Source: Teseptimavirus T7
Sequence record: PP384393
DNA length: 40,943 nucleotides
Strand: one strand, 5' to 3'
Below are positions 24,006 to 25,162 of the stretch, in pieces. Position 1 is the first letter of the stretch; the number at the start of each line of letters is the position of its first letter. Under the pieces are notes generated by a model that did no database searches, was not told the origin of the DNA, and saw nothing but the letters and a program-made list of their open reading frames with translations. Position numbers and translations under genes: made by a program.

Positions 24006-24066
24006 AAACACGTGGCAAACATTCCAAACCGGAGCCATACAGTACAAAGCACTCTTAGGCCTCTGT

Positions 24067-24205
24067 ACCCACGCCGAAACAAGCGCTCATGAGCCCGAAG
24101 TGGCGAGCCCGATCTTCCCCATCGGTGATGTCGGCGATATAGGCGCCAGCAACCGCACCTGTGGCGCCGGTGATGCCGGCCACGATGCGTCCGGCGTAGA
24201 GGATC
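24067..24205 (-). pseudogene. tetA: Internal fragment of pBR322 tetA (tetracycline efflux), antisense, non-functional
   Basis: Reverse complement translates to [46 protein letters not shown]; this is the backbone segment that sits upstream of the T7 promoter in pET-type vectors. Confidence 0.7.
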
Positions 24206-24227
24206 GAGATCTCGATCCCGCGAAATT

Positions 24228-24250
24228 AATACGACTCACTATAGGGAGAC
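24228..24250 (+). promoter_or_regulatory. Second copy of T7 phi10 promoter (vector-derived) with modified s10 leader/RBS through 24305
   Basis: cgaaattaatacgactcactatagggagaccacaacggtttccctctagCaataattttgtttaactttaagaaggagatataCCATGG. Confidence 0.95.
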
Positions 24251-24305
24251 CACAACGGTTTCCCTCTAGCAATAATTTTGTTTAACTTTAAGAAGGAGAT
24301 ATACC

Positions 24306-25016
24306 ATGGTGAGCAAGGGCGAAGAAGATAACATGGCCATCATCAAGGAGTTCATGCGCTTCAAGGTGCACATGGAGGGCTCCGTGAACGGCCACGAGTT
24401 CGAGATCGAGGGCGAGGGCGAGGGCCGCCCCTACGAGGGCACCCAGACCGCCAAGCTGAAGGTGACCAAGGGTGGCCCCCTGCCCTTCGCCTGGGACATC
24501 CTGTCCCCTCAGTTCATGTACGGCTCCAAGGCCTACGTGAAGCACCCCGCCGACATCCCCGACTACTTGAAGCTGTCCTTCCCCGAGGGCTTCAAGTGGG
24601 AGCGCGTGATGAACTTCGAGGACGGCGGCGTGGTGACCGTGACCCAGGACTCCTCCCTGCAGGACGGCGAGTTCATCTACAAGGTGAAGCTGCGCGGCAC
24701 CAACTTCCCCTCCGACGGCCCCGTAATGCAGAAGAAGACCATGGGCTGGGAGGCCTCCTCCGAGCGGATGTACCCCGAGGACGGCGCCCTGAAGGGCGAG
24801 ATCAAGCAGAGGCTGAAGCTGAAGGACGGCGGCCACTACGACGCTGAGGTCAAGACCACCTACAAGGCCAAGAAGCCCGTGCAGCTGCCCGGCGCCTACA
24901 ACGTCAACATCAAGTTGGACATCACCTCCCACAACGAGGACTACACCATCGTGGAACAGTACGAACGCGCCGAGGGCCGCCACTCCACCGGCGGCATGGA
25001 CGAGCTGTACAAGTAA
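24306..25016 (+). CDS. mCherry: mCherry red fluorescent protein (synthetic, GC-rich codon usage)
   Basis: 236-aa [56 protein letters not shown]...GGMDELYK; MYG chromophore tripeptide present. Confidence 0.97.
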
Positions 25017-25067
25017 CTCGAGCGAGCTCCCGGGGGGGGTTCTCATCATCATCATCATCATTAATAA
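25017..25067 (+). other. Orphaned in-frame linker-His6-stop-stop (LERAPGGGSHHHHHH**) downstream of the mCherry stop codon
   Basis: ctcgag...catcatcatcatcatcattaataa in frame 0 with mCherry but separated by its TAA. Confidence 0.85.
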
Positions 25068-25162
25068 AAGGGCGAATTCCAGCACACTGGCGGCCGTTAC
25101 TAGTGGATCCGGCTGCTAACAAAGCCCGAAAGGAAGCTGAGTTGGCTGCTGCCACCGCTGAG

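Follow-up and report, generated by a model that had tools for sequence, protein, structure and literature searches.

PP384393, an mCherry reporter derivative of bacteriophage T7: a published synthetic cassette behind capsid gene 10A and a right junction that departs from its design

The closest described relatives of the locus analysed here are the T7-mCherry phages made by PHEIGES (Levrier et al. 2024, Nat Commun, PMC10933291). According to that paper, fragments with orthogonal oligonucleotide overhangs are chewed back by exonuclease III, annealed, and rebooted in TXTL; a cassette consisting of T7 promoter, RBS, mCherry and T7 terminator was placed downstream of genes 1, 10, and 17; mCherry fluorescence upon lysis was reported for all three T7-mCherry phages, and sequencing was by Illumina NGS. 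The correspondence table in Supplementary Data 6 of the same paper assigns accession PP384393 to the phage T7_mC-g10-o. A later article from the same group (PMC12808745) deals with a different set of PHEIGES phages encoding mCherry (T7-mC-S*), and this accession is not cited there. Three sibling genomes are also available for comparison: PP384395 (T7_mCg17o) and PP384397 (T7_mCg1o), 'Mutant Teseptimavirus T7 clone recombinant' genomes in which the cassette is annotated as synthetic additions, and PP384396, 'Mutant Teseptimavirus T7 clone recombinant T7_compile', annotated 'mCherry / synthetic gene added'. Outside of phages, the nearest counterpart is the expression cassette of pIVEX2.3d/pET-type plasmids.

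The DNA analysed here, referred to as the window, is the whole 40,943-bp sequence of PP384393. It is a complete linear T7 genome with identical 160-bp direct terminal repeats (1-160 and 40784-40943, detected by blastn). Comparison of the whole window with NC_001604 by blastn returned two collinear blocks at 99.99% identity, window 1-24005 with T7 1-24004 and window 25109-40943 with T7 24102-39937, which covered everything except 24006-25111, together with an additional 84-bp match between 24221-24304 and the native phi10 promoter and leader. At the level of single bases, the backbone differs from NC_001604 in three places: an extra A at 1896, a SNP at 22630, and one replacement. The extra A, in the 0.6B region, is absent from NC_001604/V01146; since the AY264774 form of T7 carries the same A, it is, as judged by sequence comparison, not an engineered change. 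Position 22630 is G in the window and A in NC_001604, changing Asn to Ser in gene 9 (scaffolding protein), and since the same base is found in PP384396, from the same laboratory, this SNP is probably a laboratory-stock polymorphism.

The third difference is the engineered segment. The preliminary description of this DNA had placed a synthetic cassette at 24006-25110, as an insertion that leaves T7 directly after the 10A stop codon, rejoins it at Tphi, and accounts for about 1005 bp of the excess length over reference T7, and it had proposed alignment to NC_001604 as a check. The alignment bears this out in most respects: the reference lacks the interval, unambiguous T7 identity ends at 24005, and it restarts at 25112, where the Tphi region begins, such that window 25112-40943 corresponds to T7 24106-39937. 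The start of the interval is therefore as described, while its true end is 25111. The DNA is foreign, but it is not a pure insertion, as T7 24005-24105 (101 bp, roughly the proximal two thirds of the coding tail specific to 10B) has been swapped for the 1106 bp of window 24006-25111, which lengthens the genome by 1005 bp net. Together with the A at 1896, this makes up the 1006-bp difference between 40,943 and 39,937 bp (NC_001604). The 101-bp deletion in the 10B tail, the 60-nt overhang at the left edge, and the difference between the right junction and the published design had all been overlooked in the earlier account.

The left edge of the engineered segment is the TAA stop codon of gene 10A (24003-24005), and the DNA around it can be accounted for by two PHEIGES primers. 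Primer oho1-mcherry-s, which consists of AAACACGTGG...GGCCTCTG followed by tacccacgccgaaacaagc, is an exact match to window 24006-24084, and primer gp10-oho1-as (the reverse complement of oho1 followed by ttactccactttgaaaacc...), once reverse-complemented, equals window 23976-24065 exactly, so that oho1 comes immediately behind the 10A stop. The overhang is thus an exact match to the 60 nt at the 5' end of the former primer and, in reverse complement, to those of the latter, and between them the two primers reproduce the entire junction of 10A stop, oho1, and pIVEX priming site (23976-24084). The oho1 stretch (24006-24065) had no match in the plasmid collection, and it is found at the same end of the cassette in PP384395 and PP384397. 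From the text of the PHEIGES paper, oho1 appears to be a concatenation of three 20-mers from an orthogonal-primer library. The earlier view that the sequence becomes cloning-vector-like from 24006 accordingly applies from 24066 on, and 24006-24065 is instead synthetic overhang.

The replacement also affects the product of the programmed frameshift. The 10A/10B frameshift site GGTTTTC (23987-23993) is intact and the sequence downstream of it is changed, so that the -1 frame now encodes a 22-aa neo-tail that terminates at a TAG (24056-24058) inside oho1, compared with a tail of 57 aa in wild-type 10B. Frameshifting ribosomes would be expected to make a shortened gp10B' bearing this neo-tail, with a predicted sequence comprising the residues of 10A up to the slip site followed by QSGVKTRGKHSKPEPYSTKHS. 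Such a protein should be harmless, because 10B is dispensable in T7.

Downstream of oho1, the cassette follows the order of an expression vector (Table 1). The segment 24066-24205 is an internal fragment of tet(C) lying antisense, on the window's minus strand, and it is shared at 100% identity with the tet(C) of many plasmids in the plasmid collection; its minus-strand translation gave only a weak MFS_1 match below the Pfam cut-off, as expected for 42 aa. A BglII site lies at 24207-24212. The exact 23-bp consensus class III promoter TAATACGACTCACTATAGGGAGA (-17 to +6) occurs seven times in the window and six times in the reference, the extra copy being that at 24227-24249, which the sibling records annotate as 'T7 promoter added for mCherry cassette'. 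The surrounding segment, 24221-24304, is identical at 83 of 84 bases to the native phi10 promoter and leader (T7 22881-22964; window 22882-22965). The sole mismatch, A22931 versus C24270, is an A-to-C change that kills the XbaI site in the cassette copy, and the C is common to PP384395, PP384396, and PP384397. The two copies form an 84-bp direct repeat that flanks gene 10A. Recombination between them would be expected to be lethal, and such recombinants should not accumulate, because 10A, which lies between the copies, is essential.

The open reading frame that starts within the NcoI site encodes 236 aa and includes the Met-Tyr-Gly tripeptide that forms the mCherry chromophore. Its translation is identical at 236 of 236 positions to residues 32-267 of PDB 6ylm_A (E = 1.9e-161) and matches the Pfam GFP family (PF01353) with 154.3 bits, against a cut-off of 22. 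The GC content is 62% for mCherry and 59% for the insert, compared with 48% for the rest of the window. The stretch behind the mCherry stop codon contains sites for XhoI (25017), SacI (25024), SmaI (25029), EcoRI (25074), SpeI (25099), and BamHI (25105-25110), as well as a Gly-Ser linker, His6 codons (25044-25061), and a TAATAA preceding EcoRI. The His6 codons are not translated, because the TAA of mCherry itself precedes them. This polylinker presumably derives from pIVEX2.3d. The final 105 bp of the cassette, Tphi, also occur in native T7 (24106-24210), making this the site of a seamless right junction. Each of the parts named in the preliminary description (an antisense tetA fragment, a BglII linker, a second phi10 promoter and leader, an NcoI-embedded ATG, a 236-aa ORF resembling mCherry, restriction-site linkers, His6, and a polylinker ending in BamHI) is therefore present, no more than 1-2 bases away from where it had been placed, the mCherry assignment having passed the alignment that had been suggested for it.

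Table 1. Features of the engineered segment and its T7 flanks in the window
Feature	Position	Strand	Basis and remarks
Gene 10A (major capsid protein), intact	22968..24005	+	ORF list; identical to NC_001604 22967-24004
Altered -1 frame	23990..24058	+	Reads FQSGVKTRGKHSKPEPYSTKHS, then stop; translations, window vs reference; 10B join annotated in NC_001604
oho1, 60-nt synthetic orthogonal overhang (assembly overlap)	24006..24065	+	PHEIGES primer match
pIVEX2.3d/pET-type vector sequence upstream of promoter	24066..24226	+	tet(C) fragment, BglII
Added T7 class III consensus promoter	24227..24249 (-17 to +6; +1 G 24244)	+	Exact 23-mer
Gene 10 leader	24244..24305	+	RBS AAGGAG 24293-24298; NcoI 24304; ATG 24306
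mCherry CDS	24306..25016	+	236 aa + TAA
Untranslated vector polylinker remnant	25017..25111	+	Site scan; identical in PP384395 and PP384397
Tphi terminator region	25112..25216	+	blastn/alignment, terminator scan; hairpin 25176-25211, then T-run
Gene 11 (tail tubular protein A)	25234..25824	+	Unchanged vs NC_001604; first native gene past the cassette

As no record in the plasmid collection spans more than 59% of the cassette, the source plasmid was identified through the primer names in the paper: window 24066-24084 is the primer named pIVEX2.3d-seq1-s, which forms the annealing part of oho1-mcherry-s, and the template is given as the plasmid 'T7p14-mCherry' (PMC10933291). The succession of tet(C) scrap, BglII, T7 promoter, gene 10 leader and RBS, NcoI start, MCS, C-terminal His6, BamHI, and a Tphi fragment beginning at T7 24106 is that of pIVEX2.3d/pET-type cassettes. 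In contrast with those plasmids, the cassette here has been excised and embedded in a replicating phage genome, its XbaI site is mutated, and its His6 is silenced by the stop codon of the insert.

A megablast search of 50,697 phage records indicated that T7 genomes match the flanks only and that one record, PP384396, covers 90%, and a search with the left 240 bp retrieved PP384395 and PP384397. These two, products of the same laboratory and method, contain the whole cassette including the 60-nt oho1, and window 24006-25216 (oho1 through Tphi, 1211 bp) is 100% identical in both. They differ from the window in that the cassette lies after gene 17 (PP384395) or gene 1 (PP384397) and in that they keep oho2 and the cassette's own Tphi besides the native one. 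The oho1-to-oho2 amplicon measures 1271 bp in both (1807-3077 and 1801-3071 of the compared sibling sequences) and is listed as 1266 bp in the table of PMC10933291, a trivial 5-bp discrepancy. PP384396 resembles the window in having a cassette between 10A and Tphi with an identical promoter, leader (with the XbaI-killing C), and mCherry CDS. However, its cassette follows the 885-bp design given for the first-generation T7-mC-g10 (primers mcherry-tt-s/-as), trimmed so that oho1, the tet(C) scrap, and the polylinker/His6 are absent; it is cleanly inserted behind T7 24119, within the 10B tail, leaving most of the native tail upstream, and the PP384396 backbone has three deletions and a tail-fibre mutation.

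Based on these comparisons, the interval is a man-made, already published mCherry expression cassette and not a natural system, and the window is almost certainly the PHEIGES phage T7-mC-g10-o, a laboratory-built T7 reporter. Its T7 backbone with the laboratory's gene 9 SNP, oho1 right after the 10A stop, the T7p14-mCherry amplicon, the locus 'downstream of gene 10', and the ~41-kb size class are all as described for that phage. The start of the published T7-mC-g10-o NGS contig maps to the reverse complement of window 10252-10650. The preliminary description, which spoke of a synthetic T7-promoter::mCherry cassette between 10A and Tphi in an engineered reporter phage, is thus upheld by the alignment, the mCherry identity, the vector flanks, the identical cassette in siblings annotated as synthetic, and the match of PHEIGES primers to the left junction.

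Other origins were considered and can be weighed against the same evidence. That a natural T7 relative picked up a moron, an accessory gene lying behind the capsid gene and ahead of Tphi, has its position to recommend it, as the gap between capsid gene and terminator is a permissive site, but the chance of this is practically nil given a cargo that matches an engineered, monomeric coral fluorescent protein at 100% identity, flanks that consist of restriction-site linkers, His6, an antisense tet(C) scrap, and published synthetic primer sequence, and the finding that, among the 346 phage records matching the region, the cassette sequence occurs only in engineered PP38439x genomes. It is also exceedingly improbable that the sequence is a chimeric mis-assembly of wild-type T7 reads with contaminating reads from an expression plasmid. 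Both phi10 and Tphi are common to T7 and pET/pIVEX plasmids and could bridge contigs, but a chimera would be joined at these elements rather than at the 10A stop via a 60-nt overhang matching a phage-specific primer, and fluorescence was reported for the phage itself (PMC10933291). Recombination in vivo between T7 and a pET/pIVEX-type plasmid, in place of the PHEIGES in vitro route, could produce a crossover-like right junction such as the one observed, which falls inside Tphi homology common to phage and plasmid. We nevertheless consider it very improbable, as the left junction (10A stop, oho1, vector) lies at no homology and is as the primers encode it, and the same oho1-cassette amplicon is present in two other PHEIGES phages. 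Natural acquisition, plasmid-read chimerism, and classical plasmid-phage recombination were all rejected.

In contrast with the left junction, the right junction of the window is not the one designed. Primers oho2-mcherry-as and gp10-oho2-s, as given in PMC10933291, specify Tphi followed by oho2 and then T7 from 24069 onward, yet a sequence search of the whole window detected no oho2 (AAAGGGGCCGTCAATATCAG...), and the designed junction was not found. To rebuild the design in silico, we joined window 1-24005 to the 1271-bp amplicon of PP384395 (identical in PP384397) and that in turn to T7 from 24069 to the end. The rebuilt genome is 41,145 bp and contains the 105-bp Tphi stretch twice, at 25112 and 25314, with oho2 between the copies, whereas the window has a single Tphi, lacks oho2, and measures 40,943 bp. 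Removal of one 202-bp period, consisting of Tphi (105 bp), oho2 (60 bp), and T7 24069-24105 (37 bp), yields a sequence that matches the window at all 40,943 positions. This exact match implies that the window is not a different construct but the designed phage, in which the directly repeated Tphi has collapsed to one copy. In the portions of Levrier et al. 2024 (PMC10933291) consulted, this departure of the right junction from the design is unmentioned.

The collapse could have taken place in the phage or in the assembly of its sequence. We think it probable that the 202-bp loss is physically real and that the oho2 junction was resolved through the 105-bp Tphi duplication, most likely because the two Tphi repeats underwent homologous recombination with each other or annealed in an alternative way. 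This could have involved T7's own recombination machinery, during rebooting or the first passages, or annealing via Tphi instead of oho2 after long exonuclease III resection. A phage that in fact carries the full 41,145-bp arrangement (Tphi, oho2, 37 bp, Tphi), with the 202-bp shortfall arising from collapse in a short-read assembly, is the less likely possibility: the missing segment is exactly one repeat period, as collapse of a de Bruijn graph would give, and the reads were from Illumina NGS according to the paper, but Illumina reads or read pairs are typically longer than 105 bp and normally resolve a repeat of that size. Also weighing against it are the g1 and g17 siblings, in which the Tphi copies are separated by essential genes and both oho junctions are kept. 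Their retention agrees with a real deletion that selection tolerates and that only the g10 locus permits. Recombination between short direct repeats is efficient in T7, and the DNA between the repeats at this locus is non-essential, so a real deletion would be expected. An undocumented difference in the primers actually used could likewise explain the right junction, and is left with the small share of probability that remains beside physical loss and assembly collapse.

Taken together, the data are consistent with a build in which a PCR amplicon of the pIVEX2.3d-derived 'T7p14-mCherry' was given 60-nt synthetic orthogonal overhangs, chewed back with exonuclease III, and annealed to the T7 genome, itself supplied as PCR fragments, with the phage then rebooted by cell-free TXTL. 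T7 RNA polymerase turns to class III promoters late in infection; Tphi terminates incompletely, allowing read-through into genes 11-12. In the resulting phage, T7 RNA polymerase would be expected to transcribe mCherry late, alongside the class III genes, from the added promoter at 24227-24249, with a likely additional contribution from phi9/phi10 read-through. The strong gene 10 RBS would direct translation from the ATG at 24306, which the gene's own TAA should stop before the His6 codons, and the single remaining Tphi would end transcription. Under this scheme, mCherry would be made late and abundantly, reporting productive infection, and infected cells may turn red before lysis. The published mCherry fluorescence (PMC10933291) agrees with this predicted late output.

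For genome scans, these results mean that the foreign segment of PP384393 should not be counted as a natural accessory locus or as a defence or anti-defence locus. If the 202-bp loss is real, the phage would be a small, concrete case of design drift in cell-free phage engineering, and the paper's 'confirmed by NGS' would cover a structure other than that of its primer table. The engineering lesson, a minor one, is that a cassette with its own Tphi placed beside the native Tphi creates a 105-bp direct repeat, of which one copy is left; the cassette has in addition taken away most of the gp10B-specific tail, and the sequenced genome retains neither the scar foreseen in the design nor 37 bp of phage sequence.
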